A stretch of 64,000 nucleotides of DNA from Steroidobacteraceae bacterium (GTDB lineage Bacteria; Pseudomonadota; Gammaproteobacteria; Steroidobacterales; Steroidobacteraceae). The notes under the pieces are model-generated. The model ran no database searches. It was given only the letters and a program-made list of their open reading frames with translations, and was not told where the DNA came from. Shown piece after piece: positions 38,650 through 64,000 of the stretch. Both the position numbers and the translations under genes were made by a program. Positions within the stretch are counted from its first letter, which is position 1; each line of letters begins with the position of its first letter. The DNA lies in NCBI GenBank assembly GCA_035631515.1, contig DASQIP010000066.1, positions 738-64,737 of the forward strand, given 5' to 3'.

Positions 38650-38709
38650 CGCGCCTGCTCGGTTGGTAAACGTGACTCCGGGCAAAGCTGACGTCGATCG
38701 GAGCGCATC

Positions 38710-42741: not shown

Positions 42742-42922
42742 CGCGCCTTCCGCCCCCGTCCGGCTCCGCCGGCATAGTCCTTAGGAACTATGGCGCAGCT
42801 GCAAGTGCGCGGAGGCTTGGTATTGCAAGCTCGAACCTGAACGTAAGTCCGGCGCGGGCAGATCGGCGGCGCTCCGCGCGCCGGGCGTTCGTTGATCAGG
42901 GTTGCCAACGGCTGGAGCGTTG

Positions 42923-51233: not shown

Positions 51234-51237
51234 GCAT

Positions 51238-52671
51238 ATGAGCGTGAGCGTCAGACGCCCGTGGAACCTGCTGGTGCCCATCGGCGTCTACGCGCTGCTC
51301 GCCGTGTGGATTGCGCTCACCTCGGCCGAGTTCGACGCCGGCAACTTCTCGTTCCTGATCTACGGCGTGGCGAACATCATCGTGTTCACGGACGCGGTGG
51401 ACTTCGGCGTGCGCCTGTACGCGCACCGCCGGCACACCGCGGCTTCGGCGGGCCGGGGCACGGCGGACTGCGGCCTGCTCTCGGTCGATCTGCCGTCTCT
51501 GGGAAGGCCGTTCATCGGCAGAGCGCGCGCCCGTCCTTTCGCGATCGTCGCTTCGATATTCAATCTCGAAGACGGCATCGAGCAATTCATGGCGCGGCTG
51601 GCGCCCTACCGGGAGCACGTCTGGCTCATCAGCGATGGCTCCACCGACCAGACGGTCCAGCGCCTGCACCAGGCGGGTTGGCGCTGCCTGGAGGAGGAGG
51701 TGAATCGCCGCAAGCCGGGCGCGCTGCGGCGGCTGCTGGCGACCCTGCCGGCGCGCATCGAGACCGTCATGGTCATCGACCCGGACGTCAGAATCTGCTC
51801 GCGCCGTGAAGGCAGTGCCGTCGATCTTGAGCGCGTCGTGGCGGACCTGCAGCAGTCCGGCGCGGCGGCGGCGTGCCCGCGCGTCGAGATGGAGCGCGAC
51901 GGGCTGCTCGGGCGATTCCAGGCATTGGAGTACGCGCTGACGTTCGTCGTCGGGCGGCGCAGCATGGCCGACTACGGCGTGACTTCCGGGGTCTCCATTT
52001 ACCGCCGGGACGCGCTCGAGCACGCGCTCGCGCGCCATTCACTGTCGGTCTATGCCGAGGACCTCGAGACCGCGCTCATCCTGCTCAACGACGGCGAGCG
52101 CATCTACTACGACGGCCGCCTGGTGGTGAGCACCGACCGGCCGAACTCGTTTCGCCACTGGTTCTCGCAGCGCGTCGGCTGGTATCACGGACTGCTGCGG
52201 GTCTATACGGAACGCCTCCCCGAGCTGTGGCGGGTCGGCCGGCGCGACCCGTTCGCGATGTACAACTACATCGGCTACCTCGGCGTGCTCGGACTCGGCC
52301 TGCACGCGCTCAAGCTCGTGAGCGCGGCGCTGCTGTCCGTGAGCGTCGCGGCGATCTTCGACAACCTGTTCGTCCTGCACCTGCTGCCCTACGCCGGGAT
52401 GGTCAATCCCGTGTACTTCGTCGGCGCCTCCGTGAGCTATCTCGGGCTCGGCTCGCTCGCGCTGTTCACCGTCGTGCCGCATCGCGACCGCGCCTACATT
52501 GCCCCGATCCTGCCGATCTACTTCATCTACGTACTGCTGCACCTGGTGCCGATCACGCTCGGGTTCGCCAACTGGGTGGCGCTCAAGCTGTGGCACCGCC
52601 GGGTGTTCCGCGATCACTACCAGTCGCACGAGGACGTCCCGAGTCTCTACGGCGCGCTGTATCGGCCATGA
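51238..52671 (+). CDS. membrane-embedded family-2 glycosyltransferase (processive synthase type)
   Basis: Two N-terminal TMs, GT-A domain (ISDGSTDQT, VIDPDV, AEDLE), a Q-R-V-G-W variant of the QxxRW processivity motif (nt 52168-52182), then about 4 C-terminal TMs. Confidence 0.8.
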   Translation: MSVSVRRPWNLLVPIGVYALLAVWIALTSAEFDAGNFSFLIYGVANIIVFTDAVDFGVRLYAHRRHTAASAGRGTADCGLLSVDLPSLGRPFIGRARARPFAIVASIFNLEDGIEQFMARLAPYREHVWLISDGSTDQTVQRLHQAGWRCLEEEVNRRKPGALRRLLATLPARIETVMVIDPDVRICSRREGSAVDLERVVADLQQSGAAAACPRVEMERDGLLGRFQALEYALTFVVGRRSMADYGVTSGVSIYRRDALEHALARHSLSVYAEDLETALILLNDGERIYYDGRLVVSTDRPNSFRHWFSQRVGWYHGLLRVYTERLPELWRVGRRDPFAMYNYIGYLGVLGLGLHALKLVSAALLSVSVAAIFDNLFVLHLLPYAGMVNPVYFVGASVSYLGLGSLALFTVVPHRDRAYIAPILPIYFIYVLLHLVPITLGFANWVALKLWHRRVFRDHYQSHEDVPSLYGALYRP

Positions 52672-53642
52672 TGCTCACGGACTGCCGCGGCTGGCTGCCG
52701 GACGGCAAGCAGGCGGCCGTGTGCTTCAGTATCGACGATGTCCATCCGGCAGGCTCGGCGGATGCGTTCGATGCGGGCGGAGATCTCGGCCGCGGTGCCC
52801 TGGGCCGCGTCGAGCGGCTGCTCGAGCGTCACCCGCGGCTGCGCATCACGATGTTCGTCACGCCCGACTGGCGGCGGGTGGAGCTGGTCAGGACCCGCAA
52901 GTGGTTGACACGCGTTCCGCTGCTGCGTGAGCGCATCCACTGGGCACCCCTCGCGCCCAGAGGGCGTTTTCGCATCGACCGGTTCCCGGACTTCGTCGCC
53001 TACCTGAACGCGCTGCCGCGCACCGATTGCGCCATACATGGCCTGCATCACGCCCACCCGGGGCCGCGGCTCGCCACGGAATTCCAGGGACAGTCGCGCC
53101 GCAGGTGCCGCGCACTGGTGCAGGAGGCCCGGCGGATCTTCGTCGCCGCCGGGCTCAGGCACGTCCCGGGCTTCGCAGCGCCGGCCTGGAATACGCCTCC
53201 CGCGCTCTGTGCGGCCCTCGGCGACGAGGAATTTCGCTTCGTGGCTTCGGCACGTGACCTCGATACCCCGGTGAGCGCCGGGGCGCGCACGGCCGGCCAC
53301 GGGCTGCGCGGCGCCTCGCTCATTCACCCGACCTGGATTGCGGGCGCGCCCGCGCACGAGCCCGCGGCTGCGGCCCGGCGACTGGTGCACTTCACCACGA
53401 ACTTTCAGGCGACTTCGACGCTCGAGCGTGCCCACGCCATCATCGAGGCCGGCGGCCTGCTCTTCATCAAGGCGCACGTCTTCAAGAAGGGTGGCGGGAT
53501 CACCATGCTCGACGGACTCGACGACGACTACTGCGCCTACCTGGAGCGGCTGTGGCGCGAGCTCCATCGCCGCTATGGCGATGCTCTGTGGTGGACCTCG
53601 CTCGATGAGGTAGCGAACCGATGCCGGGCGCTGGCGAACTGA
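52668..53642 (+). CDS. polysaccharide deacetylase-like protein (DUF2334-type)
   Basis: CFSIDDVHP near the N-terminus, TMFVTPDW and HGLHHAH histidine clusters consistent with deacetylase-fold metal sites. No signal peptide. ATGA overlap with the GT2 stop. Confidence 0.55.
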   Translation: MMLTDCRGWLPDGKQAAVCFSIDDVHPAGSADAFDAGGDLGRGALGRVERLLERHPRLRITMFVTPDWRRVELVRTRKWLTRVPLLRERIHWAPLAPRGRFRIDRFPDFVAYLNALPRTDCAIHGLHHAHPGPRLATEFQGQSRRRCRALVQEARRIFVAAGLRHVPGFAAPAWNTPPALCAALGDEEFRFVASARDLDTPVSAGARTAGHGLRGASLIHPTWIAGAPAHEPAAAARRLVHFTTNFQATSTLERAHAIIEAGGLLFIKAHVFKKGGGITMLDGLDDDYCAYLERLWRELHRRYGDALWWTSLDEVANRCRALAN

Positions 53643-54559
53643 GGATTCTCGTCAATCCGGAGGATCGCGAGGCCGAGGTCGGCCCGGCATTTCTGACCCG
53701 GTGTTTCGCCGCCCGCTGGACCGAGGCGATGTACCGCTGGTACCTGCAGCGTCCTTTCGCCGGTGAGCTTCCCGACCGGCTGATATTGACGGAGGGCGGG
53801 CGCGCGGTGGCGGCGTGCGGCGTGGTCTATCGGCAGCTGCGCACCCAGGATGGGGAGGTGCATCGGGTCGGCATCGCACTCGCCGCCGCTACGCTGCCCA
53901 GCGCGCGCGGCCGCGGTTGCTACGCACGCGTGCTGCGGGCGACGGCGGAGCGGAGTGCGGCCCGCGGTTGTGCCGCGCTGCTCGGCTTCGTCACCGCGGA
54001 TAACACCTCGGGGCGGGGGCTCGCGCGCCTCGGGGCCACGGCCATCCCGAGCGCCTACATCGTGTCGCGCGCTCGCTCAGCCGGTCCGCCGGCGGGCCTG
54101 CTGCAGCTGCGGGACGCGCGGGCGGCGGACGACTGGCCGCTGCGCGCTGCGGCGCGCGTGCGCCCACCGGCGGCGCCAGCCGGGTTCCACTACCCCGACG
54201 CGAGTGCCTGGCGCTCGCAGCTGGTGGATCGCCCGGATGGGGTGCAGACACTGCGCATCGGGGCCACGTGCCGTGCCGTGATCGAGCGGGTTGCCGACAC
54301 CGATCGCCTGCAATGGCTCGACGGCGATGGGCGCGAGCGCGTGGCCGCCATCCGTGCCGTCGTGGAGTGCGCACGGCGCCGCGGGCGTAAGTTCTTCATG
54401 TTCTCGACCTGCCCGCACGAGACGGCGGCGGCGCGCCGCCTCGGACTCGCGGCGCATCCCGGATACATGCTGGTCCTGCCGCTGCAACCAGCGTATGCCT
54501 CCGCGGTGCGCGGCTGGGCGGGCATGTCCTGGCGCGTGCAGTCCGGAGACCGGATGTAG
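53621..54559 (+). CDS. GNAT-fold acetyltransferase-like protein
   Basis: 312 aa. Central segment IALAAATLPSARGRGCYARVLRATAERSAARG resembles the GNAT acetyl-CoA-binding Q/R-x-x-G-x-G/A motif. Overlaps the upstream gene by 22 nt. Confidence 0.55.
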   Translation: MPGAGELRILVNPEDREAEVGPAFLTRCFAARWTEAMYRWYLQRPFAGELPDRLILTEGGRAVAACGVVYRQLRTQDGEVHRVGIALAAATLPSARGRGCYARVLRATAERSAARGCAALLGFVTADNTSGRGLARLGATAIPSAYIVSRARSAGPPAGLLQLRDARAADDWPLRAAARVRPPAAPAGFHYPDASAWRSQLVDRPDGVQTLRIGATCRAVIERVADTDRLQWLDGDGRERVAAIRAVVECARRRGRKFFMFSTCPHETAAARRLGLAAHPGYMLVLPLQPAYASAVRGWAGMSWRVQSGDRM

Positions 54560-54561
54560 TC

Positions 54562-55395
54562 ATGAGCCGGACGCGCTGCGGCCGCGAGTACCTGTCGGCA
54601 GCCGGCTGCGCGGTGGCCGCGGCTCTGCTCGCGGCAGCGGCGCCGGCTGCCGGCGGCTCCGAGGACTCCACCCCCGCGGCTTTTTCCTGCACGCTGTCGA
54701 GCTCCTGGAGGAGCTGCGGATTCGCAGCGCAGGCGAAGTCGTCCGATCGCATCACGGAGGTCGAGGTTGCGGGTGTGCCCGGCGTGCGCCTCGAAACGAT
54801 GCCGGGGGACGAGCGCATCGCCGGCAGCGGCCGCGCCGAACGCGCAGACCTCGCCCTGTCGCCGGAGGAGACCGGCTGCTCCCAGGGCGCCGAGCAGTGG
54901 TGGACGCACGCGCTGCTCTTCCCCGATGACTACACTCCGCCGCGCGCCACGGCGGCGGACTCCTGGCCGTGGGGCGTGGTCTTCGACTTTCATCAGACGG
55001 GCTCCGAGGGCCAGGCCAACTTCGAGATCGACGTCGTCGGCAAGCCTCCCGGGATGCAGTTCGCGATCTCCGCAGGGCCGGTGGTCTCGAACGGGGCGCC
55101 CGGCTCGCCGACCCGGATATTCCCCGTGGGCCCCATAATAAAGAATCACTGGTACCGCTTCGTCTACCACATCCGCTGGTCGTCCGGGCGCGATGGCTTT
55201 TTCGACGCCTGGGTCGACGGCCGGCGGGCGCTCGACTACCGCGGGCCCACGCTGTACGCGGGGCAGGCCTGTTACCTGAAGCTCGCCAACTACCACACGC
55301 CCGTCGGGAGCCCGGTGGCCGTCGTGCACGCGCAACTCAAGCGCGCGGCGACCCGGGAGGCGCTCGGCCTGACGTCCGTGGAGCGCGCTCAGTGA
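54562..55395 (+). CDS. secreted polysaccharide lyase (concanavalin-fold, heparin-lyase-I/PL-like)
   Basis: Signal or lipoprotein-like N-terminus (LSAAGCAVAAALLAAAAP). WWTHALLFPDDY, VFDFHQ and NHWYRFVYHIRWSSGRDGFFDAWVDGRRALDYRGPTLY match the pattern I associate with the generic 'polysaccharide lyase' jelly-roll family. Confidence 0.55.
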   Translation: MSRTRCGREYLSAAGCAVAAALLAAAAPAAGGSEDSTPAAFSCTLSSSWRSCGFAAQAKSSDRITEVEVAGVPGVRLETMPGDERIAGSGRAERADLALSPEETGCSQGAEQWWTHALLFPDDYTPPRATAADSWPWGVVFDFHQTGSEGQANFEIDVVGKPPGMQFAISAGPVVSNGAPGSPTRIFPVGPIIKNHWYRFVYHIRWSSGRDGFFDAWVDGRRALDYRGPTLYAGQACYLKLANYHTPVGSPVAVVHAQLKRAATREALGLTSVERAQ

Positions 55396-56213
55396 GGCGG
55401 CCGCCGGGCGTACAGCGACACGGTGGGCGAGAGCAGGTAGAACAACCACTTGCCGCGCGCCGGCCGCTTGCCATCCGGAACCATCCAGCGAGCGATCGAT
55501 CGCAGCCCCTGCATCTGGCCCGGATGCAGCAGATCGAGGCGGTCGTATACCTCGAGGTCCCTGTCGCGCAGCACACGCGAGAGTTGGGGGTAGGTAAACC
55601 AGTGCACGGCCGGATAATCCGTGTAGTTAACGAGATCACGCCGATGCTTCATGATCCAGCTCAGCACACGATCACGAAGCGGTCTCGGGAGCCAGGGGTA
55701 GAACGGAAAGTGGTTTACCTCGCCCTGGAATGGATGATGACCATTGGTCGTGTGCAGCAGCAGGACGCCACCGGGAGGAAGCACATTCACCGCCGCACTC
55801 ACCGCGGCGCGCCAGTCGGGCACGTGCTCGAGGAGTGAGTTGAGCGACACCACGTCGAACTCACCGATATCCCCTGGCAGCCGGGTGGCGTCCGCGACGA
55901 TGCCCCGGAAGCGGCCGTTGGCGAGCACGTCCCGCTCTCGCGCCCGCTCGATGAAAGTCGCGTCGAAGTCGACGCCCGTGACTTTGCAGCCCTGCGCCAC
56001 CCAATGCACGCTCCACGCGCCGGTTCCGCAGCCGATGTCGAGGACGCGCAGCGGCCGGCGCGGCGGCAACAGTCGGCTGAAGCGCTCGTACTCGCGGCGG
56101 AACTCCGCCAGGTCGCCTGCGGCGCCTGTCGCGATCCTGTTCGTCGCAAGATAGGTGGCGCGTATCCCCTGAGCCGCGGCGGCTCCGGTGCGTGCCGATG
56201 CCGCGCTCTTCAT
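55389..56213 (-). CDS. class I SAM-dependent methyltransferase
   Basis: Motif I VLDIGCGTGAWS, then VTGVDFD, FDVVSLNSLLEHVP and PGGVLLL. The 3' end overlaps the convergent lyase gene by 7 nt. Confidence 0.85.
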   Translation of the reverse strand: MKSAASARTGAAAAQGIRATYLATNRIATGAAGDLAEFRREYERFSRLLPPRRPLRVLDIGCGTGAWSVHWVAQGCKVTGVDFDATFIERARERDVLANGRFRGIVADATRLPGDIGEFDVVSLNSLLEHVPDWRAAVSAAVNVLPPGGVLLLHTTNGHHPFQGEVNHFPFYPWLPRPLRDRVLSWIMKHRRDLVNYTDYPAVHWFTYPQLSRVLRDRDLEVYDRLDLLHPGQMQGLRSIARWMVPDGKRPARGKWLFYLLSPTVSLYARRPPH

Positions 56214-56228
56214 GAGCTGCTCCTCATC

Positions 56229-57011
56229 TCACGCCGCGCTCGCCGCTTCGGGCCGCGGGCGCTGCGCGTCGCGCCGCAGCAGGCCGCGCAGCGTGAGCCA
56301 CATTCGGCCGCGCAGCGTGACGGGGATCGAGCACTCGTAAGCCAGCACCGGCGTGCCGCCGAAGGCGCGCTTGAAGCGGTTGATGCCGGCGCGCTCGGGG
56401 GTGGACTCCTGCGCAAACATGCCGCCCCAGTCGTAATGCAGCAGGCCCGCGGCCTTGAAGGCCAGCATGTCCTGCCAGTGCAGCCAGCGATTCGCGCGCG
56501 CGACGAGCGAGCGGTGATCGCCGTCCGCTCCGCGGAACCAGGAGGCCGAGTGTGCGAGTTGCGCCGTGCGGCCGGCGCACAGGTGTGCATGCCATACGAG
56601 CGTCTCGCCGTTGCGGACGACGCGGCTCAGGGCGAGCTGCCGCGCCTCGGCCGCACGCGTGAGCCAGTGGCGGTCGGCGAGCCACAGGCCCTTCTGCCGC
56701 GCGAACACGTCGTAGAAGTCGATGAACTCAGCGAGGTCCGCGGCCGGCTCGGCGGACATCTCATACCGCAAGGCGTCTTCACGTCCGGCGCGGCGAATCT
56801 GCCGGCGGCAGGTCTCGTCGAACCGCGCCAGAATCGCCTCGCCCGGCGGCGTGAGATCGGTGCGCAGCGAGTGCAGCGGGGAGTTGCGCGCGTCGGCGAT
56901 CGGCGTCGAGCGATAGCGGTAGACCAGGATGTCGACGCCCGCATCCGCCGGCGGCGGCTCATCGAGCCACAGCTCGCCGTAGGTTACGGCGCGGCCCCGA
57001 ACGCGGATCAC
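56229..57011 (-). CDS. FemAB-like / GNAT-fold (Acetyltransf_6-type) acyl- or aminoacyl-transferase
   Basis: 260 aa. The pattern ...ARFDETCRRQIRRAGRE..., WHAHLCAG..., ARANRWLHWQDMLAFKAAGLLHYDWGG and INRFKRAFGG resembles the FemAB/BioF2-like acetyltransferase family. GTG at 57011 forms a GTGA overlap with the upstream stop. Confidence 0.5.
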   Translation of the reverse strand: MIRVRGRAVTYGELWLDEPPPADAGVDILVYRYRSTPIADARNSPLHSLRTDLTPPGEAILARFDETCRRQIRRAGREDALRYEMSAEPAADLAEFIDFYDVFARQKGLWLADRHWLTRAAEARQLALSRVVRNGETLVWHAHLCAGRTAQLAHSASWFRGADGDHRSLVARANRWLHWQDMLAFKAAGLLHYDWGGMFAQESTPERAGINRFKRAFGGTPVLAYECSIPVTLRGRMWLTLRGLLRRDAQRPRPEAASAA

Positions 57012-57994
57012 GCCGCGACCTTCATGGCGAAGCCGGAGTGAAATTCCGCGAGCGTCGTGCCCTTGCACCACGCGGCCAGCTCCTCGAACAGCACCTCGAG
57101 GCTCGCGTACAGCCGCTCGATGTCGGCGGACGCGCGAAATCGCGGGCTGCCGCCCGGCATCAGCTCGGAGGAGTGCACCAGGAACTCGACGCACACCGCG
57201 CCGTTGACGCGCGCCGCGCGCGCCGCGCGCAGCATGCCCGCGAGACCGTTCTCCCCGGGACACGCCCAGCTGTGCATCGGCGAGATGCGATTGAAGATGG
57301 GGCCCGCCAGCGGCAGACGGTAGGCCCAGGGCGCCGCCCGGTAGAGGCCGCTCGTCCCGATGGTCACCGGCACCTCGAGCAGGCCGCGGCGCGCCGGAGC
57401 GGCAATGTTAGCGGGCGTGAGGAAGTACGGATAGTCGGGAAAGCCGCGATAGTCCGGCCCGCCGGCTCCGTCCGGCGCGCCGGGCGTGGTGCTCCAGTCG
57501 ACCCCGGGAGTCACGGAGCAATCCACGAGGTAACCCTGCTCGAGCAGCATCTCCGCGTAGCGGCCGTCGAATCCGAGGCGTCCGGCCCGGTGGCTCACGA
57601 TCCGCCGGTCGAAGCGCTCCTCGAGGAGCCGCGTCATGACGGCGATCTTCTCCCGCATCACGTCGTCGGGATATTCGATGAGGTACGGCTGGTGCCGGCC
57701 GTCGTCGTCCGTCAGCGGGATCAGCGGCGGCGAGTTCCAGGCGTGCAGGTGCATGCCGATCTCGCCCGCATCGCGCCTCAGGACATCGCGCCCGAACTCC
57801 ACGAGCTCCGGGCAGGTCGCCATCTCGTAGTTGACGAGATAGACGGGCCGATAGCCGAAGCGCTCGCACAGCGCCTGAAAGCGCGGCAGGAAGCGGGCGT
57901 TGCGGGTCGTGATCTCGCGGGGCCGCGACCAGATGTCGTCCCCCTCGGTGTCGACGGTGATGATGAACGGTGTTTCAGACACGGCGTCCGCCAC
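57008..57994 (-). CDS. polysaccharide deacetylase-like protein (WalW-type)
   Basis: PFIITVDTEGDDIW N-terminus, HLHAW histidine motif, no signal peptide. Pattern recalled from divergent carbohydrate-esterase-4-like proteins in LPS/EPS loci. Confidence 0.55.
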   Translation of the reverse strand: MADAVSETPFIITVDTEGDDIWSRPREITTRNARFLPRFQALCERFGYRPVYLVNYEMATCPELVEFGRDVLRRDAGEIGMHLHAWNSPPLIPLTDDDGRHQPYLIEYPDDVMREKIAVMTRLLEERFDRRIVSHRAGRLGFDGRYAEMLLEQGYLVDCSVTPGVDWSTTPGAPDGAGGPDYRGFPDYPYFLTPANIAAPARRGLLEVPVTIGTSGLYRAAPWAYRLPLAGPIFNRISPMHSWACPGENGLAGMLRAARAARVNGAVCVEFLVHSSELMPGGSPRFRASADIERLYASLEVLFEELAAWCKGTTLAEFHSGFAMKVAA

Positions 57995-59135
57995 CGGCGA
58001 ACAGCTGCTGCGCGCCTGCCGGACTCCGCGTCAGCTCCTCGAAGGCGGCGAGATACGGCGCGAGGATCCGCTCCTCGGCATATTCCCGCCGCATGTACTC
58101 GCGGCAGCGCACCCCGAGCGCCGCCAGCTCGTCCGGGTCGGCGAGCAGGCGCTGGATCGCACCCCGCATCGCGAGCGGGGATCTGACCACCTCGCCGAGA
58201 CCGTGGCAGTCGATGACCCCGTCCGGGTCGCTGAAGGTCACGACCGGGACGCCCAGCATCCAGGCCTGCAGGTAGGCGTTCGGAAAGCCTTCGGCCTCGG
58301 AGGTGTTGACGAGCAGCCGGGCCCGCCCGTACATCGCGCTCGCCTCCCAGTAGGGCAGGTGGCCGTGAAAGACGACGTTGCGGCAGCGCGCCGCGGCGGC
58401 GCGGATGCGCTCGTACAACGACCGCTCGTCAGGCACCGGACCGCCGACCATGTGAAATACAACCCCGGGCAGCCGCGCGGCGAGCTCGAGGAGGCGCTCG
58501 GGACGCTTTACGCGCCGGATGTTGCCGGTCCAGAGAACGTCGAGGTCACGCCGGGCCGCCGGGGGCGCCGGCTCGGCCAGCATGCCGGCGACGCGGCCGC
58601 TGCGACCGAAGCGCTGCGCCAGGCGCTGCGCCTGAGAAGCGCTCTGTACGAGTACCGCGTGCGCCCGCCGCAGCCCGTAGGCGTACAGCCAGCGATCGCG
58701 TGCGTAGCGCACCAGCAGCCTCGCAGGGTCGCAGTCGGTGTCGCTCGCACAACGGAAGACGAAGCGGCGGTCATGACGCGCACAGAACAGCGACAGCAGC
58801 CCGACGTGCATCCCGGCGCAGCTGGTGTAGTAGACCTGCGCGTCGGCGCGCGCCAGCGCCGACCACAGGCCGCTCCAGCGCGGATGGATGAAGCGCAGCA
58901 CGGGAACTCCGGCTGCCGGCCGGTAGGCCTTGTAGACGCAGATACCGTCGCGGACCATGCCATCGTGCTGGCCGCAGTCGGCGGTCACCATGCTGACCTG
59001 GTGTCCGCGGCGTACCAGAGCGCGCGCGAGCAGTGTCTGCTGCACCGACTCGCCGCCGATTGCCTCCCCGCGGAACTCCGGCGCCAGCACCGGCAGGTTG
59101 TCGAGGCCGATCAGGCAGATGCTCATTCTCGGCAT
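57975..59135 (-). CDS. GT4-family glycosyltransferase
   Basis: N-terminal ICLIGLDNLPVLAPEF...GGESVQQ and a C-terminal SEAEGFPNAYLQAWMLGVPVV E-x7-E-type region. Confidence 0.8.
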   Translation of the reverse strand: MPRMSICLIGLDNLPVLAPEFRGEAIGGESVQQTLLARALVRRGHQVSMVTADCGQHDGMVRDGICVYKAYRPAAGVPVLRFIHPRWSGLWSALARADAQVYYTSCAGMHVGLLSLFCARHDRRFVFRCASDTDCDPARLLVRYARDRWLYAYGLRRAHAVLVQSASQAQRLAQRFGRSGRVAGMLAEPAPPAARRDLDVLWTGNIRRVKRPERLLELAARLPGVVFHMVGGPVPDERSLYERIRAAAARCRNVVFHGHLPYWEASAMYGRARLLVNTSEAEGFPNAYLQAWMLGVPVVTFSDPDGVIDCHGLGEVVRSPLAMRGAIQRLLADPDELAALGVRCREYMRREYAEERILAPYLAAFEELTRSPAGAQQLFAGGGRRV

Positions 59136-59207
59136 GTGGGCGTGAGGTTATGCGTCGTGCGTTATCTGAAAGCGGGCCCGGCCGTGCGTCCCCATGGACC
59201 CTTCGGC

Positions 59208-60308
59208 TCACCCGCCGATGAACCGCAGCCACCACTCACCGTCCAGGCGGCTTATCCCGGCGCTGCCTCGCTCGATGGCGTCGACGAGGTCGGCATGGCG
59301 CGAATGGACGAGGGTCCAGGCGCCCTCGCGGCGCATCCAGCAATGCCGGTCGGAGAGCTCCTGCAGGGGATAGGGATCGAGCCGGCCGCGCACCGCCGTG
59401 GCGCCCTGGCGCCATGCGTCGCAGAGCAGGCGCCGCAACACGCGGTCGAAGGCGCCGTCGCAGGCGGCGAGCTGCAGCACCTCGTTGACCGCTCCGGGCT
59501 GCGCGTAGTACATGAACCAGCCGAGCACGCGATCGCCTTCGCGCACTGCACGTGCGCGCAGCCGGCCGTGACGCGTCTTGCGTTCCGCCTGGCCCAACAC
59601 CCAGGCGAGCGATTCGCGGTCGTAGTACGAGCGCAACGGGTATCCGCCGTTCACCACTTCGGGCAGATGATCGAGCATGCCGCCGGCATCGAGCGGCTCG
59701 TCGCAGATCCGGTCGTCTTCGCGCGCGAAACGGTTGGGCCGCACCCGGGCGGCGACCGCGTCCGCGAGCGCGCACGAGGCACGCGCGGCGAAGTGCAGCG
59801 GGCCATGGCGCCCCGGTCTTTCGACCAGCGCCAGCGCATAGCGGCTCGGCCGCAGCAGTCGTGTCCAGTCGAGGTTGTGCAGCATCGGGACCGTGCCACC
59901 GACGGCGCGCCACAGGTGCTTCACCTGCTCGTTGGCGCCGTCGGTGATGAACAGGTCCTGCGGGCCCGCCAGCGCACGCTTGAGCAGCTGCAGCGCCACG
60001 AGGCTGTGACGCCAGTCGGGGTGGACCATGAACTGGCAGCCCACCGCCACCCTGAGGGTCCGCGTGCCGAACAGCATCGGCCGCGGCAACACTCCGGCGA
60101 AGCCGACGGCAGCGCCGTCGGCCTCGGCGATCCAGGAGGGGAGCTCGAGATCGCGCCAGGGATTGGCGAACAGGATTTCGCGGAAGTAGCGCTCGCAGCC
60201 CGGGCGCGACGGCCAGCGTTGCTCGGGATAGACCCGCTCGAACAGCCCGACGACGGCCGGCAGGTCCTCCTCCTCGAGCTCGCGCAGGCTAGTCACGCCG
60301 GCTCGCAC
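59208..60308 (-). CDS. GNAT-like acyltransferase, two-domain (~366 aa)
   Basis: N-terminal LRELEEEDLPAVVGLFERVY...AVGFAGVLPRPM...QFMVHPDWRHSLVALQLLKRAL is a GNAT-like fold with an additional C-terminal domain. Immediately downstream of the carrier-protein gene. Confidence 0.5.
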   Translation of the reverse strand: MRAGVTSLRELEEEDLPAVVGLFERVYPEQRWPSRPGCERYFREILFANPWRDLELPSWIAEADGAAVGFAGVLPRPMLFGTRTLRVAVGCQFMVHPDWRHSLVALQLLKRALAGPQDLFITDGANEQVKHLWRAVGGTVPMLHNLDWTRLLRPSRYALALVERPGRHGPLHFAARASCALADAVAARVRPNRFAREDDRICDEPLDAGGMLDHLPEVVNGGYPLRSYYDRESLAWVLGQAERKTRHGRLRARAVREGDRVLGWFMYYAQPGAVNEVLQLAACDGAFDRVLRRLLCDAWRQGATAVRGRLDPYPLQELSDRHCWMRREGAWTLVHSRHADLVDAIERGSAGISRLDGEWWLRFIGG

Positions 60309-60612
60309 CGCGACGCCGCACGGCCCTCAGGTCTGCGACCCGCGGCTCGGGCCCGGCGCCGCCGTCGCCGGCGGGCGGGTCGTTCAGCAGTCGGGCCAGA
60401 CGCCCCAGGGAGCGGAGGTCATCGAGATCGACGGACTCGATGGCGATGCGGCGGCCGAAGCGCTGCTCGACGAGCAGCAGGAGATCCACGAGCTGCAACG
60501 AGTCGAGCACGCCGCTCTCGAGCAGATCGACTTCGGGCGAGGGCACGTCGACGTGCAGATGCTCGCGCAGCAGGGCGCGCAGCCGGTCGACGTCGATGGC
60601 CGGGTCGGACAT
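60289..60612 (-). CDS. acyl/peptidyl carrier protein (DltC/ACP-like)
   Basis: ATG at 60612. The four-helix carrier pattern has a phosphopantetheine-attachment motif GVLDSLQLVDLLLLVEQRF. The C-terminal ~30 aa form an unusual Gly/Pro/Arg tail overlapping the next gene. Confidence 0.7.
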   Translation of the reverse strand: MSDPAIDVDRLRALLREHLHVDVPSPEVDLLESGVLDSLQLVDLLLLVEQRFGRRIAIESVDLDDLRSLGRLARLLNDPPAGDGGAGPEPRVADLRAVRRRGASRRD

Positions 60613-60625
60613 GGGGCCGCGGCGC

Positions 60626-62272
60626 TCAGTGGCTCCCGGGGATCGCGACCGCCGGCGCGGCGTCTGCGGGCGCGGCCCGCTTGGCCTCGAGAAAGCGCCG
60701 CCGCAGCAGCGGGCGGTCCGTCTTGCCGTTGGCGTTGCGGGGCAGCGCGTCGCAGCGCATCCAGTGTGCCGGCAGCATGTAGCCGGGCAGCACGCGCGCC
60801 AGCCGCTGCCGCAGGAACTGCGGATCGAGGCTGCGGCCGCGCACCGGCACGTAGGCACAGCAGATCATCCAGCCCTCGAAGCCCTCGGACTGCACCGCGA
60901 CTACCGCGCTCTCGCGCAGCTCGGGCAGCGCGGCGAGCGCCGTTTCGATCTCGCCGAGCTCGATGCGGTAGCCGCGACTCTTGATCTGGTGGTCGCAGCG
61001 GCCGGCGAAATAGATGAGTCCGTCGGCACCGCGGCGCGCCAGGTCGCCGGTGCGGTAGATGCGATCTTCGGCGCCCGTAGCGGTGCGGTACGGCAGGAAG
61101 GCGGCCGCGGTCTTTTGCGGGTCGCGCCAGTAGCCGGGGCTCAGGCCCACGCCGCGGATGTACAGATCGCCGGTCTCGCCCGCGGCCACCGGACGCATCT
61201 CGGCATCGAGTATCAGCAGCTCCTCGCCCGCGCAGGCGGTGCCGATCGGGATCGGCTCGCGCGCGTCCGCGGGACAATGCGGCACGGTGTAATGGCTGCT
61301 CGCGATGGTGGTCTCGGTGGGGCCGTAGAGATTGGTGAAGCGTGCGTGCGGCAGGCGCCGCATCCAGTAGATCAGCGTCGGCGTCGGCAGCACCTCGCCG
61401 CACCAGAGCACGCGGCGCAGCTCGGGAAAGTCCCCCTGCTGCACGACGTCGAATTTGGCCATGAGGTTCAGGACCGAGGGCACGGAGAACCATTGCGTCA
61501 GGCGGGACCTGCGGATGAGCTGCGCGAGCTTGTGCGGCAGAAGATTCAGGGTCTGGGGAATGAGATGCAGCTCCGCGCCGGCGCCGAGCGTGCCGAAGAC
61601 GTCGAAGGTCGAGAGGTCGAAGTGCAGCGGGGGGTGCTGCGAGGCGCGGTCCGCGGGCGAGGGGCGGAAGCAGTCCGCCGCCCACTCGAGGAAGCGCATC
61701 ACGCTGTAGTGCGTGATCATCACCCCCTTCGGTTGGCCGGTGGAGCCCGACGTGAAGAGGATGTGCGCGAGGTCCGTGTCGCGGTTCAGGCTCGCCGGCG
61801 CGCTCGCGGGCAGAGCCGGGAGATCCGCGGCCGTGAACGCCGGGGCGAGCTCCTCGTCCGGTGGCGCGCCGGCATCGAGCCAGCCGACGAGCGGGCGCCG
61901 CTCGAGGCTCGCGCATGCGAGCGTCGCGCGCAGCTGAGCGGCCGTCTGGCGCGCCGCCAGAATCGAATGGCAGCCGCATGCTTCCAGCATCCGCGCCAGC
62001 CGCGCGGGAGGACCGGCCGGGTCGAGCGGCACGTAAGCTGCGTCCGCCTTCAGAACGCCGACGAGACCGGCGATCGCCGCCGGCGTCTTCGGCATCAGCA
62101 CGGCGACACGGTCGCCGCGGCGGCAAGCGAGCTCGCGCAGCATGCGCGCGAGACGATTGCTCGAGGCCTCGAGCTCACCGTAGGTCAGAGTGCCGTCCTG
62201 CGAGACGATCGCCCGGGATTCCGGACGGGCGTCCGTCCGTTCGCTGATGGCCGTCTGCAGCAGACGGCTCAT
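60626..62272 (-). CDS. adenylate-forming enzyme, amino-acid-adenylation/DltA-like (ANL superfamily)
   Basis: Core motifs are present in order: LTYGELE (A1), FTSGSTGQPKGV (A3), NLYGPTE (A5), GDLYIRGVGLSPGYW (A6), YRTGDLARR (A7), GRCDHQIKSRGYRIELGEIE (A8) and PRNANGKTDR (A10). ATG at 62272 overlaps the upstream stop (ATGA). Confidence 0.85.
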   Translation of the reverse strand: MSRLLQTAISERTDARPESRAIVSQDGTLTYGELEASSNRLARMLRELACRRGDRVAVLMPKTPAAIAGLVGVLKADAAYVPLDPAGPPARLARMLEACGCHSILAARQTAAQLRATLACASLERRPLVGWLDAGAPPDEELAPAFTAADLPALPASAPASLNRDTDLAHILFTSGSTGQPKGVMITHYSVMRFLEWAADCFRPSPADRASQHPPLHFDLSTFDVFGTLGAGAELHLIPQTLNLLPHKLAQLIRRSRLTQWFSVPSVLNLMAKFDVVQQGDFPELRRVLWCGEVLPTPTLIYWMRRLPHARFTNLYGPTETTIASSHYTVPHCPADAREPIPIGTACAGEELLILDAEMRPVAAGETGDLYIRGVGLSPGYWRDPQKTAAAFLPYRTATGAEDRIYRTGDLARRGADGLIYFAGRCDHQIKSRGYRIELGEIETALAALPELRESAVVAVQSEGFEGWMICCAYVPVRGRSLDPQFLRQRLARVLPGYMLPAHWMRCDALPRNANGKTDRPLLRRRFLEAKRAAPADAAPAVAIPGSH

Positions 62273-63285
62273 GCCGCGAGCGAGTCGGCGGCCGCTCCGA
62301 AGGCGGCACCGATGTGCCGCAGCTCTTCGGCAGCCGCCGGCACATCGAGCACGAAGGTCCGATAGCCGGCCTGCACGTAGCCGGCAATCGCGTGCGCCAC
62401 CCGCGAGTAACTCCCGACGAGATAGGGACAGAAGGTCTTGTAGTTCTTGAAGGGCACCAGCCAATAGGGGTTGTGCGCCCCGGCCGGCGTCTCGCCGAGA
62501 TCCGAAAGCTGCCGATGCCACGCCGAGTCCGACACTTTCATCGCCAGCTCGTGTGCGAGCTGGCCACGGCGGTCGGGCGGAAAACGCGCATGCGCGACGC
62601 GCCAGGCCTCCGCGTCGGCGCTGCGGGCGATGATGCCGATACGGATGCCGCGCGAGGCCGGGGCGGGCCCCGTGACGCGGGCGTATTCGGCGGCGGGCTT
62701 CGGGTATTCGATCGCGGTCGCCTCCAGCCGCAGCGCCGCCGCCATGCCTGCCTCCGAGGAGCCGGACACCAGGATCCCGGGTAGCAGCTCGCGCGGTACC
62801 CGCGGTGTCAGCTTGAGATTCTTCACCCGGTAGTGGGTGCCGTCGAACGTGACCGGCTCCTCCGATTGCAGCAGCAGCTGGACGATCGTGGTGTATTCGA
62901 TCAGCCGCTCGTAGCGCTGGTCGTGCGGCGTGCGGTCGTCGAGCGCGGCCAGGTCGTTCGCGAAGCCGCCCGCCACCATGTTGAGATACACGCGGCGGCC
63001 GTGCAGGAAGGCGAGCGAAGCAACCATCTTGGCGACGCTGTAGGGGTGCATGTAGATGGGCTGAACCGCGACCAGAGGACAGAGGCTGCGGGTAGCGCCG
63101 ATGATCGTCTGTGCGACGAGCCAGGCATCCACCTGCCCGTTGTCGGTGTAGACGAGGATCCCTTCGCAGCCGGCATCTTCGCTCCAGCTGGCGATTTCTT
63201 CGACCTGCTCGAGATAAGCCTCCGGGCTCGCGGTGGCCGAGGGCGGGCAGGTGGAGAAGACCCGGATGTTCGGGGCGGCGGACAT
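62269..63285 (-). CDS. LLM-class (luciferase-like) flavin-dependent oxidoreductase
   Basis: 338 aa TIM-barrel-like pattern (ILVYTDNG...AVQPIYMHPY...LNMVAGGF...ERLIEY) typical of luciferase-like monooxygenases. ATG at 63285; the upstream ORF extension is Arg-rich. Confidence 0.65.
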   Translation of the reverse strand: MSAAPNIRVFSTCPPSATASPEAYLEQVEEIASWSEDAGCEGILVYTDNGQVDAWLVAQTIIGATRSLCPLVAVQPIYMHPYSVAKMVASLAFLHGRRVYLNMVAGGFANDLAALDDRTPHDQRYERLIEYTTIVQLLLQSEEPVTFDGTHYRVKNLKLTPRVPRELLPGILVSGSSEAGMAAALRLEATAIEYPKPAAEYARVTGPAPASRGIRIGIIARSADAEAWRVAHARFPPDRRGQLAHELAMKVSDSAWHRQLSDLGETPAGAHNPYWLVPFKNYKTFCPYLVGSYSRVAHAIAGYVQAGYRTFVLDVPAAAEELRHIGAAFGAAADSLAA

Positions 63286-63571
63286 GTTGACCCTCGCTAG
63301 CAGATGAAGGGGTGGGCGAGCCATGCGGGGACGATAGAGACGAGGCCTTAAGGCCGTGTGGGCGCGCCGCCGTGCCGAATGGTCCGTTCGGACCAATCCC
63401 TGCCCCGAAGGACTACCGTGTAGCCGAATGACTACACGGCTGACGGTGAATCGCCACACTCTCATGGTGATCCGACGATGGTGGCCGGATTTCGCAGGCA
63501 CTACGATGTCGGGACTGCTGAGGCGCCCGAACGTGGGGTTGGGGCGTCCCGGTGTGTGCGGGGGAGGCTGG

Positions 63572-64000
63572 ATGAACGACGTTGCTTATGTGCCCGAGGC
63601 TCGCGATCAACGCGAGGCTCCCGAACCACGGAAGGCCCGCGATCCGCGCGATGGTCAGGAACCGCGCGAGAGTCTCGATCAGCGCGCGCTGCTCGGCGCG
63701 CTGCGCGCGCTCCGCAAGGGCGACTTCACGGTACGGCTGCCGCTCGATCTCACGGGTGTCGACGGTGAGATTGCCCAGGTCTTCAACGACGTAGCCGAAT
63801 TGAATACCGCGATGAGCGAGGAGCTCACGCTCGTGTGTGAGGCCGTGGGCAAGGAGGGTCAGATCAACCGCCGCATGCGGGTCGCGGGTGCGGTCGGCTC
63901 GTGGGCGAGCAAAATCGAGTCCGTCAATACGCTCATCGCCGACCTGATGCGTCCGATCACCGCCGTCGCCGACGTGATCGAGGCGGTGGCGAGCGGCGAT
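63572..64000 (+). CDS. HAMP-repeat sensor protein, N-terminal fragment (continues beyond window)
   Basis: Open frame from ATG 63572 (GGGGGAGG RBS), not in the ORF track because no stop occurs in the window. LLGALRALRKGDFTVRLPLDLTGVDGEIAQVFNDV and a second ...IADLMRPITAVADVIEAVASGD are typical of tandem HAMP modules in large hybrid kinases. Confidence 0.65.
   Translation, partial: MNDVAYVPEARDQREAPEPRKARDPRDGQEPRESLDQRALLGALRALRKGDFTVRLPLDLTGVDGEIAQVFNDVAELNTAMSEELTLVCEAVGKEGQINRRMRVAGAVGSWASKIESVNTLIADLMRPITAVADVIEAVASGD

Follow-up and report, generated by a model that had tools for sequence, protein, structure and literature searches.

In Gram-positive bacteria, decoration of a cell-surface glycopolymer by the Dlt system (DltA-DltC-DltB-DltD) depends on a stand-alone adenylation (A) enzyme for a small amino acid and a dedicated carrier protein of ~80 aa with an (I/L)LDS motif, and with the MBOAT protein DltB and DltD yields an ester on teichoic acid. 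In Nod factor synthesis (NodC, NodB, NodA, NodF; NodS, NodU), a glycosyltransferase is followed by a CE4 de-N-acetylase, which frees one amine, and a carrier-dependent N-acyltransferase, with methyl- and carbamoyl-transferases as optional additions. AlmG is a lipid A acyltransferase-family protein. Together with AlmE and AlmF, it serves in the glycine modification of Vibrio cholerae lipid A, where a Gram-negative DltA-like ligase and a carrier feed a cytoplasmic-face acyltransferase with neither DltB nor DltD (PMC4278540). The AHBA side chain of butirosin involves the carrier BtrI, the LLM monooxygenase BtrO and the transferase BtrH: an amino-acid-derived acyl group is built, then hydroxylated by the LLM enzyme on the carrier and then moved to the amine of an amino sugar (see PMC2922099). 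The cassette described here appears, by analogy, to be a variant of this Dlt/AlmEFG/NodAF/butirosin logic.

The window (the whole analysed stretch, 64,000 nucleotides of a Steroidobacteraceae genome) carries eight genes on its minus strand that are co-directional and tightly packed or overlapping, and the domain assignments bear out the gene order given in a first-pass annotation of the same DNA:

62269-63285, minus strand: LLM, an SsuD-like FMNH2-dependent luciferase-like monooxygenase (338 aa; Pfam Bac_luciferase, 111 bits)
60626-62272, minus strand: stand-alone NRPS/DltA-type A enzyme (548 aa; AMP-binding, 280 bits)
60289-60612, minus strand: DltC-like carrier protein (107-aa ORF; PP-binding, 37 bits, residues 9-76)
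59208-60308, minus strand: GNAT366, a putative tandem GNAT (362-366 aa; Acetyltransf_9, 26.6 bits versus a cut-off of 25)
57975-59135, minus strand: GT4 glycosyltransferase (386 aa; Pfam Glyco_trans_1_4, Glycos_transf_1, Glyco_transf_4)
57008-57994, minus strand: p328, with a CE4 (NodB-type) deacetylase-like fold in its predicted structure (324-328 aa)
56229-57011, minus strand: p260, a single-domain FemABX-type transferase (260 aa; Acetyltransf_6, 22.2 bits versus a cut-off of 22)
55389-56213, minus strand: SAM-dependent methyltransferase (274 aa; Methyltransf_23, _25, _11)
63286-63571, no strand assigned: divergent intergenic region between the operon and a HAMP-array histidine kinase gene, presumed to hold the promoter and regulatory region

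The ATGA at 62272-62269, where the LLM stop overlaps the A-enzyme start, and the GTGA at 57011-57008, where the p260 start overlaps the p328 stop, are exact as first reported. The two 20-nt overlaps reported with them (GNAT366/carrier and p328/GT4) are true for the longest ORFs, but homologue lengths (362 aa for P0121 and 324 aa for P0241) point to starts at 60296 and 57982, with 8-nt overlaps instead (GTGACTAG and GTGTCTGA, respectively). The probable start codon is thus a GTG in both genes, at 60296 for GNAT366 (the 8-nt overlap taking in the carrier stop) and at 57982 for p328. The remaining gaps are of 13, 72 and 15 nt, with a GAGGAG in the 15-nt gap ahead of the methyltransferase ATG, and a search of the minus strand for a terminator-like site found none. 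Transmembrane segments or signal peptides are predicted in none of the eight proteins, all of which are predicted to be cytoplasmic. The host setting of the operon is a soil-type proteobacterial exopolysaccharide (EPS) island.

The A enzyme scores 400 bits against TIGR01733, the amino-acid adenylation domain (cut-off 317), and the full set of A1-A10 core motifs claimed for it is legible in its translation. Among solved structures it is best matched by module 2 (A2 domain) of LgrA, with the DltA structures lower (203-216 bits) and AlmE (4OXI) detectable as a relative at 184 bits. It falls short of the cut-offs of the DltA equivalog models (295 and 282 bits versus 476 and 560), and assignment as the exosortase-A-associated ligase TIGR03098 was rejected (255 bits, cut-off 592). 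The specificity code, read with calibration on EntF, is DLFFLCLIAK. When set beside the code of the verified B. cereus DltA (DLMTLCTVAK), the comparison that the first-pass annotation had suggested, it is identical at six of the ten positions (D, L, L, C, A and K), among them the Cys that corresponds to DltA Cys269; at three positions the pocket residue is larger than its DltA counterpart, and the code Asp (GrsA position 235) and Lys (position 517) are both present. This code is kept from the Steroidobacteraceae to Nitrospira despite an overall identity of just 52-65%. Because the pocket is DltA-like and conserved across phyla, the substrate is predicted to be a small amino acid, e.g. Ala or Gly, with the qualification that specificity codes cannot tell D-Ala, L-Ala and Gly apart.

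In the carrier, the previously claimed GVLDS phosphopantetheine site is present, with Ser38 in ESGVLDSLQLV as its serine and 60499-60501 confirmed as the codon, and the motif is conserved among orthologues. The top NCBIfam matches are dltC models, at 29.5 and 28.4 bits and below the cut-offs of 52 and 68, and there are weak matches also to ornithine-lipid and cispentacin ACPs. The label ‘Dlt-like' is apt as a statement of resemblance, in the pocket and in the best carrier models; both proteins lie under the DltA and DltC equivalog cut-offs. The cassette differs from Dlt also in the lack of the MBOAT protein DltB and of DltD among the genes scanned, in partners that are all cytoplasmic, in transferase candidates of GNAT and Fem folds and in the predicted product, an amide on a sugar amine instead of an ester.

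The arrangement is recurrent in dozens of species-level genomes, and its distribution divides it in two. The LLM-A-carrier-GNAT366 set occurs in Gamma- and Betaproteobacteria, Rokubacteria, Gemmatimonadetes and Nitrospira, and is complete in 13 of 19 close and 9 of 13 mid-distance loci, the counts that also apply to co-occurrence of the LLM with the A enzyme. The GT4, p328 and p260 genes, which are invariably together in the loci possessing them, occur in Gamma- and Betaproteobacteria only; many loci with the four-gene module are without this triad (L010, L039 and L062, for example), so that the acceptor would there be made by other means. The operon is thus two conserved sub-modules side by side, each also found apart, and the earlier view of one operon unit holds for its co-directional and recurrent arrangement but not for its being a single unit. 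The methyltransferase at 55389-56213, although present in the operon as first described, is an accessory gene and no conserved member of the cassette: outside the window it was seen in L016 alone, where it is inverted.

The Nitrospira loci show a non-orthologous replacement, p328 and p260 giving way to CE4 deacetylase and FemAB genes of the XrtA type, and related loci of that group carry a TIGR03019 FemAB and a TIGR03006 deacetylase, both above their cut-offs, which recalls the XrtA/PEP-CTERM set of FemAB, deacetylase, ligase and ACP genes. The window differs from that set in its A enzyme, which is not TIGR03098, and in having no exosortase among those of its genes that were scanned. Between their A and carrier genes, the Nitrospira loci contain an insertion of formyl- or carbamoyl-transferase genes, which suggests tailoring or N-capping on the carrier; carbamoyl-transferase and NodS-like methyltransferase genes are also present in related loci.

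GNAT366 belongs to a family of 1132 clusters at 50% identity (E<=1e-30), and has no match among NCBIfam models, hence no curated family model, or among PDB sequences. Foldseek with a poor predicted model (pLDDT 60, pTM 0.41) returned Eis-like double GNATs (4MY3, 3N7Z, 2OZG), VipF and NMT, in alignments that span about 330-365 columns with a TM of only about 0.3. Immediately upstream of GNAT366 homologues there is a carrier gene in 23 of 29 close and 12 of 19 mid-distance loci, and one is found within 6 kb in 12 of 23 distant relatives, whose loci contain a ligase of a different, TIGR03098-like type (479 bits) and an ACP, a further likeness to the XrtA/PEP-CTERM set. Fem-like genes occur within 10 kb in 17 of 18 well-flanked loci (11/11 and 6/7), and there are separate fusions of GNAT366 with Acetyltransf_6 (Fem) and with ATP-grasp. 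Since the carrier-GNAT366 linkage holds across phyla, GNAT366 is proposed as a candidate aminoacyl or acyl transferase whose donor would come from the carrier. The nomination of the GNAT-like and FemAB-like proteins as transfer candidates in the first-pass annotation thereby gains comparative support, from cross-phylum adjacency, Fem co-occurrence and fusion.

For p328, no Pfam (Polysacc_deac_1 included), NCBIfam or PDB sequence match was found, even at E = 10. Its AF2 model (pLDDT 66.6, pTM 0.70) nevertheless has the NodB-homology fold at the level of the structure model: the top Foldseek matches are the CE4 deacetylases 3RXZ, BA3943, HP0310 and Bc1960, together with ChbG and ArnD, and for 3RXZ, 6HM9, 3QBU and 4L1G the E values are 5e-5 to 5e-4 with a probability of 1.0 and TM of 0.41-0.62. 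Nine Asp, Glu and His residues are invariant (D15, E17, D19, H82, H84, H135, D158, H274, E277); the canonical CE4 motifs TFDD and H-S/T-x-x-x-H are absent, with TVDTEGDD and GMHLHAW instead. On the strength of this model p328 is proposed to be a de-N-acetylase. The smaller p260 has a Fem-type GNAT domain, with profile matches in the PDB to an aminoacyl-tRNA-dependent peptide synthase (9WQY, 2e-7), FemX (5e-5) and FmhB (5e-3), and its C-terminal GINRFKRAFGG fits the Fem motif G-x-x-x-F-K-x-x-F-G; it differs from the FemABX and XrtA-associated proteins in being a single domain of 260 aa with no NCBIfam match. The usual donor of Fem-family enzymes is aminoacyl-tRNA, which implies two donors in the pathway proposed below. 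The LLM has SsuD as its best solved relative (79 bits), and the module has a flavin reductase gene next to it in L010, L012, L013 and L024, although no homologue of that gene was found in the window.

Taken together, these features suggest a cytoplasmic, carrier-dependent cassette that decorates an amino sugar of the EPS produced by the surrounding genes, either with a small N-acyl group derived from an amino acid or with a short side chain of peptide-like type, a reading to which we give slightly less than an even chance. The A enzyme would adenylate an Ala/Gly-sized amino acid, possibly D-Ala, judging from homology and the conserved pocket, and would then, again by homology, load it as a thioester onto Ser38 of the carrier. 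The SsuD-like LLM might modify this residue while it is tethered, in the manner of BtrO in butirosin biosynthesis, a speculative step for which the substrate is a guess. GNAT366 would draw its aminoacyl group from the thioester on the carrier and not from acyl-CoA, and pass it to an amine, as its gene linkage across phyla suggests. The GT4 enzyme would add a HexNAc, from which p328 would strip the N-acetyl group, and the amine so exposed would receive an amino acid through p260, with aminoacyl-tRNA or the carrier as donor. The methyltransferase would be a lineage-specific extra, and the decorated unit would then be flipped and polymerised by Wzx/Wzy machinery. Both the sugar acceptor and the transfer chemistry are putative.

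The roles of the two transferases may also be exchanged, which we consider unlikely. GNAT366 would then use acyl-CoA in the ordinary way, to N-acylate either the alpha-amine of the amino acid on the carrier or a sugar amine, and p260 would move the capped aminoacyl group from the carrier to the de-N-acetylated sugar, giving an N-(N-acyl-aminoacyl) amino sugar. N-acetyl-alanyl groups are known in O-antigens. The families that GNAT366 matches are CoA-dependent GNATs, and acyl-CoA is the donor for Eis, VipF and NMT, its neighbours in structure, none of which is known to be carrier-dependent. The Nitrospira insertions would fit N-capping on the carrier, and the near-obligatory Fem-like partners and the fusion with a Fem-type transferase are also consistent with this exchange. 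However, the tightest and widest linkage, with overlapping genes, is that between the carrier and GNAT366 and not that between the carrier and Fem; the glycine-rich CoA-pyrophosphate motif R/Q-x-x-G-x-G/A has the form R-H-S-L-V-A in the aligned GNAT366, which is only suggestive; and a thioester donor is unknown for any Fem-family enzyme (PMC2922099).

The assumption of an EPS product rests on the neighbourhoods. The operon sits inside an EPS island, as first annotated, with EpsE/F/G-like genes in the window, and the neighbourhoods are polysaccharide loci in every lineage examined, with genes for a priming transferase, Wza/Wzc, Wzy, Wzx, UDP-sugar dehydrogenase, AsnB and DegT. This context weighs against the quite improbable alternative of a soluble or membrane-associated small glycoconjugate, either mycothiol- or bacillithiol-like (MshA-D, BshA-C), with a GT4 enzyme, a deacetylase, amino-acid ligation to the GlcN amine and a double-GNAT cap, or a Nod-factor-type signal. 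The series of GT4, deacetylase, aminoacyl donor and tandem GNAT does parallel MshA-B-C-D, the proteins are all predicted to be cytoplasmic, and the operon itself is without a transporter, flippase or polymerase. A signalling role could also be read into the divergent sensor kinases and GGDEF proteins: the alignment of the histidine kinase homologue begins at 63572 (67% identity to cluster c11), and the same divergent set of histidine kinase, hybrid histidine kinase and RR-GGDEF protein is found in L001, L002, L006 and L016, while 63286-63571 contains no match to a sigma-70 consensus. Yet the cassette lies inside polysaccharide loci throughout, none of the genes linked to it would supply a small acceptor (inositol phosphate, malate or the like), and the GT4 enzyme falls well short of the MshA and BshA models in score. 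The enzyme families differ except for GT4 and GNAT, and an A domain with a carrier takes the place of the aaRS-like MshC (which is mentioned in PMC2922099).

Condensation, thioesterase, MBOAT (DltB) and DltD domains, noted as missing in the first-pass annotation, are indeed absent from the operon, from the 38 window ORFs scanned and from the precomputed Pfam assignments of L001 and L002. Two window genes, a GT4 and a small GNAT at 40931-42687, owe their assignment to tblastn alone. The operon and conserved neighbourhoods also lack condensation and thioesterase or reductase release domains, in which the cassette differs from a modular NRPS despite its adenylation domain (TIGR01733) and PP-binding carrier. 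A minimal NRPS-like route to a secondary metabolite, siderophore or aminolipid, adjacent to EPS genes by chance, is very improbable, for although the A enzyme is nearest to NRPS A domains and the carrier weakly matches the ornithine-lipid and cispentacin ACPs, C, TE, KS and lipid acyltransferase genes are all absent from the genes scanned, and at least five phyla share the placement of the cassette with sugar-handling enzymes and in EPS loci.

Returning to the carrier-dependent EPS cassette, it has a Gram-negative precedent in AlmEFG, on account of which carrier-dependent aminoacylation without DltB and DltD is less new than the first-pass annotation implied (PMC4278540). The cassette differs from it in the extra LLM, GT4, deacetylase and Fem-like partners, in its EPS rather than lipid A context and in its transferase: no AlmG-type lipid A acyltransferase domain was found among the operon or neighbourhood proteins, and a putative tandem GNAT adjoins the carrier instead. 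In butirosin biosynthesis, by comparison, loading is by the ATP-grasp enzyme BtrJ and not by an A enzyme, BtrH has a papain-like rather than a GNAT fold, and the product is an antibiotic. The proposed order of glycosyltransferase, de-N-acetylase and carrier-dependent N-acylation follows that of the Nod factors, with a predicted aminoacyl carrier here as against a fatty acyl-ACP donor and a NodA of unrelated fold there; no NodA homologue was seen.

Beyond this locus, we put forward tentatively, as a proposal with rather more against it than for it, that GNAT366 founds a widespread class of tandem GNATs (at least 1,100 clusters at 50% identity, in at least eight phyla) that take aminoacyl or acyl groups from DltC-like carrier thioesters instead of CoA and, in concert with Fem-like enzymes that depend on tRNA and in some cases with ATP-grasp ligases, build short peptide-like side chains on de-N-acetylated EPS sugars. 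If this is true, the GNAT366 class would represent a cytoplasmic, condensation-domain-free, non-ribosomal route to the peptide bond that is devoted to glycan decoration.

The operon occupies the end of a ~40-kb polysaccharide island and comprises eight co-directional genes on the minus strand (55389-63285), which were picked out by codon-position G+C in this ~70% G+C window and assigned from Pfam and NCBIfam.

Genes of the operon.
62269-63285 (-), LLM, luciferase-like monooxygenase, 111 bits; SsuD supplies the nearest models and structures
60626-62272 (-), A enzyme, 548 aa; TIGR01733, 400 bits versus a curated cut-off of 317
60289-60612 (-), carrier, 107-aa ORF with a PP-binding domain; Ser38 codon at 60499-60501
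59208-60308 (-), GNAT366, 366-aa GNAT
57975-59135 (-), GT4, glycosyltransferase family 4
57008-57994 (-), p328, 328 aa, without family match
56229-57011 (-), p260, 260 aa, borderline Acetyltransf_6
55389-56213 (-), SAM-dependent methyltransferase

The genes are tightly packed, and the ATGA and GTGA junctions described in the first-pass annotation are indeed found at 62272-62269 and 57011-57008. The overlaps that it placed at the carrier/GNAT and GT4/p328 junctions are also present, but probably not at the length of 20 nt, since the lengths of homologous proteins (362 aa for P0121, related to GNAT366, and 324 aa for P0241, related to p328) favor the second GTG as the start codon (60296 for GNAT366 and 57982 for p328), which reduces both overlaps to 8 nt. 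The other intergenic gaps measure 13, 72 and 15 nt. Scans for promoters and terminators were uninformative, giving 0 promoters and no terminator-like site on the minus strand, and hydrophobic segments or signal-like N-termini are absent from all eight proteins.

The A enzyme exceeds the curated cut-off of TIGR01733, the amino-acid adenylation domain model, and the full complement of core motifs ascribed to it earlier is readable in the translation, all ten being found (LTYGEL, LKADAAYVPLD, FTSGSTGQPKG, FDLS, NLYGPTE, GDLYIRGVGLSPGY, YRTGD, GRCDHQIKSRGYRIELGEIE, LPGYMLP and NGKTDR); the carrier likewise has a predicted modifiable serine, Ser38 of ESGVLDSLQLV. The ten specificity positions were calibrated on E. 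coli EntF, for which the known Ser code (DVWHFSLVDK) was recovered. The comparison with DltA proposed in the first-pass annotation reveals six positions common to the codes of the window enzyme (DLFFLCLIAK) and of B. cereus DltA (DLMTLCTVAK; sequence matched residue-for-residue to PDB 3DHV). One of these is the Cys corresponding to Cys269 of DltA, a residue reported to govern enantiomer selection. At three further positions of the pocket the window enzyme has a bulkier residue than DltA (M to F, T to F and T to L). The code is near-invariant from Steroidobacteraceae to Gemmatimonadota, Rokubacteria (DLYFLCLIAK) and Nitrospira (DLMFLCLIAK), a range over which overall A-enzyme identity is only 52-65%, and this constancy points to a single substrate kept throughout, a small amino acid predicted to be of Ala or Gly size, the stereochemistry of which is beyond the reach of the specificity code. 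A betaproteobacterial subgroup carries the code DVFFLA(L/M)I(V/S)K, with Ala in place of the Cys; this variant occurs in the A orthologues of loci L010, L012, L016, L017, L019 and L024 and in 9 of 20 proteins sampled from P0001-P0120, and could mean that another stereoisomer or another amino acid is used. The earlier description of the system as Dlt-like holds in that the A/carrier pair resembles DltA/DltC, but the pair is not an equivalog, because the carrier, DltC-like in its motif and best NCBIfam matches, scores below the cut-offs. The A enzyme is in fact slightly nearer to NRPS A domains, specifically module 2 of LgrA.

Downstream of this pair, p328 has no relative by sequence or profile in Pfam, NCBIfam or the PDB, the Pfam and PDB searches returning noise only. 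Its family is large (3,947 matches), with invariant Asp, Glu and His clusters, and its fold is visible only through structure prediction: the AF2 model (pLDDT 66.6, pTM 0.70) resembles the CE4 de-N-acetylases 3RXZ, BA3943, HP0310 and Bc1960, as well as ChbG and ArnD (probability 1.0, TM ~0.5). Profile matches of p260 are to 9WQY, an aminoacyl-tRNA-dependent peptide synthase (2e-7), to Weissella FemX (5e-5) and to FmhB, and its C-terminus bears the Fem-type motif GINRFKRAFGG. GNAT366 has marginal Pfam support, no NCBIfam match and no significant match in a PDB profile search; its assignment as a putative tandem GNAT rests on Pfam together with full-length Foldseek alignments of a weak AF2 model, at low TM, to Eis homologues, VipF and N-myristoyltransferase. 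An exhaustive profile search (E<=1e-30) places it in a family of 1,132 clusters at 50% identity, nearly all ~360 aa in length. At alignment residues 97-106 of this protein, the ‘R/Q-x-x-G-x-G/A' pyrophosphate-binding loop reads P-x-x-R-(H/D/R)-(S/G)-L-x-A, both glycines usually being replaced, a sequence that could fit a donor other than CoA.

Many close relatives of the A enzyme are present in soil metagenomes (66-92% identity), the named ones deriving from Steroidobacteraceae and Burkholderiales MAGs. In two of these loci, L001 and L002, precomputed Pfam assignments give the gene order of the window; the methyltransferase is absent from L001 (92% identity), and in L002 (Burkholderiales) a 376-aa Fem-like protein, a cupin_8 protein and a 232-aa ORF without Pfam match are encoded between GNAT366 and GT4. 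A scan of species-representative genomes with the GNAT366 alignment yielded 108 encoding loci, in Steroidobacteraceae, Burkholderiales, Gemmatimonadota, Rokubacteria, Binatia, Nitrospira (including the cultured N. moscoviensis), Planctomycetota, Ignavibacteria, Bacteroidota, myxobacteria, and MAGs labelled Acidobacteriota and Actinomycetes. When the window proteins were compared with 80 retained loci by tblastn, the co-conservation anticipated for the operon took the form of two conserved sub-modules, LLM-A-carrier-GNAT366 and GT4-p328-p260, but did not extend to the methyltransferase, found elsewhere only in L016, where it is inverted. The GT4-p328-p260 triad is all-or-none, and is missing from several fully flanked loci of the four-gene module (L010, L039 and L062).

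Genes accompanying GNAT366, by GNAT366 identity (carriers located with an HMM of DltC-like carriers; Fem-like genes counted within 10 kb in well-flanked loci).
At least 50%: A orthologue upstream 16/19; LLM upstream 13/19; triad downstream 10/17; carrier directly upstream 23/29, within 6 kb 23/29; Fem-like gene 11/11
37-49%: A orthologue upstream 9/13; LLM upstream 9/13; triad downstream 0; carrier directly upstream 12/19, within 6 kb 16/19; Fem-like gene 6/7
Below 37%: A orthologue upstream essentially none; LLM none; triad 0; carrier directly upstream 3/23, within 6 kb 12/23; Fem-like gene 4/9

In the most distant loci (below 37%), the ligase found alongside is another type of ANL enzyme, similar to TIGR03098. 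The carrier-GNAT366 pair is thus kept while the type of ligase differs; it predates the particular loader and varies less, as would be expected of a GNAT366 that reads the carrier. Two proteins, P0485 (761 aa) and P0362 (801 aa), have GNAT366 fused to a Fem-like Acetyltransf_6 domain (127 bits) and to an ATP-grasp domain, respectively, either naturally or as artefacts of assembly or gene calling. p328 and p260 are absent from the Nitrospira loci; in L049 they are replaced by an XrtA-type CE4 deacetylase and an XrtA-type FemAB, both above curated cut-offs, and L062 contains two Fem-like genes, a PglC-size priming transferase and a DegT aminotransferase. Furthermore, the genes lying between A enzyme and carrier in Nitrospira, a formyltransferase in L049 (8696-9640) and a NodU/CmcH-type carbamoyltransferase in L062 and L058 (~13.3-15.6 kb), hint that the amino acid, while tethered, receives an N-formyl or carbamoyl group. 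In related loci of several betaproteobacteria the module adjoins a flavin reductase gene, an arrangement that fits a two-component, FMNH2-dependent LLM. A role for the LLM as an SsuD sulfur scavenger was dropped because its gene is translationally coupled to, and co-conserved with, that of the A enzyme.

The surrounding island contains the following genes.

Polysaccharide island, in order.
22308-23705, WcaJ-type priming transferase, then a LuxR regulator
EpsE/Wza, EpsF-like co-polymerase and EpsG-like kinase
Wzy, Wzx and two GT4s
36598-42687 (+), heparinase II/III-like protein, methyltransferase, UDP-sugar 6-dehydrogenase, another GT4 and a small GNAT
42902-46556 (+), B12-binding radical-SAM enzyme, NodS-like methyltransferase and right-handed beta-helix protein
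48822-55395 (+), convergent five-gene unit: GGDEF-EAL, multi-TM GT2, DUF2334, 312-aa GNAT and polysaccharide lyase

The block at 36598-42687 is kept in related loci (the methyltransferase variably), often followed by a flavin reductase in those of betaproteobacteria. It directly adjoins the four-gene module in L010, L012, L024 and L035, a position which suggests that the cassette targets one specific uronic-acid-containing polymer. The convergent unit, retained beside the cassette in L001, L003 and L006, looks like a c-di-GMP-linked synthase-type polysaccharide system without match to a described one; its GT2 is weakly similar to PgaC/IcaA (51 bits), its DUF2334 protein is cytoplasmic and deacetylase-like, and its lyase, secreted-looking, has a stop (55395) that overlaps that of the methyltransferase (55389) by 7 nt. 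Its GNAT and DUF2334 proteins were tested as paralogues of GNAT366 and p328, which they are not. On the other side of the operon, a divergent HAMP-array histidine kinase (63572-64000, +) continues beyond the window end, its start being 67% identical to kinases of 1,300-1,700 aa upstream of the cassette in L001, L002, L006 and L016. In L001 and L002, precomputed Pfam places after it a hybrid kinase and then a response-regulator-GGDEF protein, and a hybrid-kinase homologue is common to L006 and L016; the HAMP-array kinase is a conserved divergent regulatory neighbor of the cassette.

As had been noted from the sequence, MBOAT, DltD, condensation and thioesterase domains are missing from the 38 ORFs of the window that were scanned, a set that takes in all but about a dozen smaller ones. 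No exosortase was found in the scanned ORFs either, the 34.3-35.6 kb gap, where one was sought, containing a further GT4. The window is also without homologues of the flavin reductase, 376-aa Fem-like, cupin_8, AsnB, carbamoyltransferase and formyltransferase proteins of related loci. Two ORFs at 46262-48825 lack a family match, and a 584-aa ORF that lies between the LuxR and Wza genes (26442-28196, -) and whose codon bias is coding-like has none in Pfam or NCBIfam.

In the mechanism that we propose, a small amino acid would be loaded by the A enzyme onto Ser38 of the carrier, a step well supported by homology, and the LLM might, speculatively and by analogy with BtrO, alter the carrier-bound group. 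GNAT366 would then move this group from thioester to amine, as its linkage to the carrier suggests. Judging from the folds and the all-or-none triad, GT4 would add a HexNAc from which p328 would remove the acetyl group, and p260 would add an amino acid to the freed amine; methylation would be optional, and all steps would be cytoplasmic and precede Wzx flipping. The main rival to this scheme reverses the roles of the two transferases in carrier reading and amide formation, so that capping falls to GNAT366 and transfer to the Fem-like enzyme. The constancy of the polysaccharide context makes two other products less likely, a soluble one of the mycothiol type and an unrelated one of the NRPS type.

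The logic of the cassette has a precedent in each of Dlt, AlmEFG, which achieves carrier-dependent aminoacylation without DltB/DltD in a Gram-negative bacterium (PMC4278540), butirosin biosynthesis (BtrI, BtrO and BtrH; PMC2922099) and NodB/NodA/NodF. Filing the cassette as a Dlt, AlmEFG, modular NRPS or TIGR03098 set was nevertheless rejected, because for each a defining component was tested and is absent or below cut-off. Literature searches yielded no description of this gene set, only background on AlmEFG and on butirosin/Fem enzymes and a link between N-acyl amino acid synthases and exosortases. While the general concept thus has precedent, new elements are a tandem GNAT that presumably acts as the transferase reading the carrier, a near-obligatory Fem-like partner, the co-conservation of the LLM, and a setting among EPS genes over many phyla.

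Bacterial O-antigens, capsules and EPS commonly bear amino-acid and unusual N-acyl substituents, which influence charge, antigenicity and matrix properties; to our knowledge, few of the enzymes that attach these groups have been identified. The A enzyme, DltC-like carrier and tandem GNAT, aided by a deacetylase and a Fem-like enzyme, constitute a concrete, testable candidate route, kept in Nitrospira and in uncultured lineages of soil and groundwater. The GNAT366 family is large, conserved and unnamed, and the hypothesis is sharply defined. If true, Dlt/Alm-type carrier chemistry would reach polysaccharides, GNAT enzymes would gain a new type of donor, three unannotated families (GNAT366, p328 and p260) would acquire names, and the modification would be tied to c-di-GMP and two-component control of the biofilm matrix.
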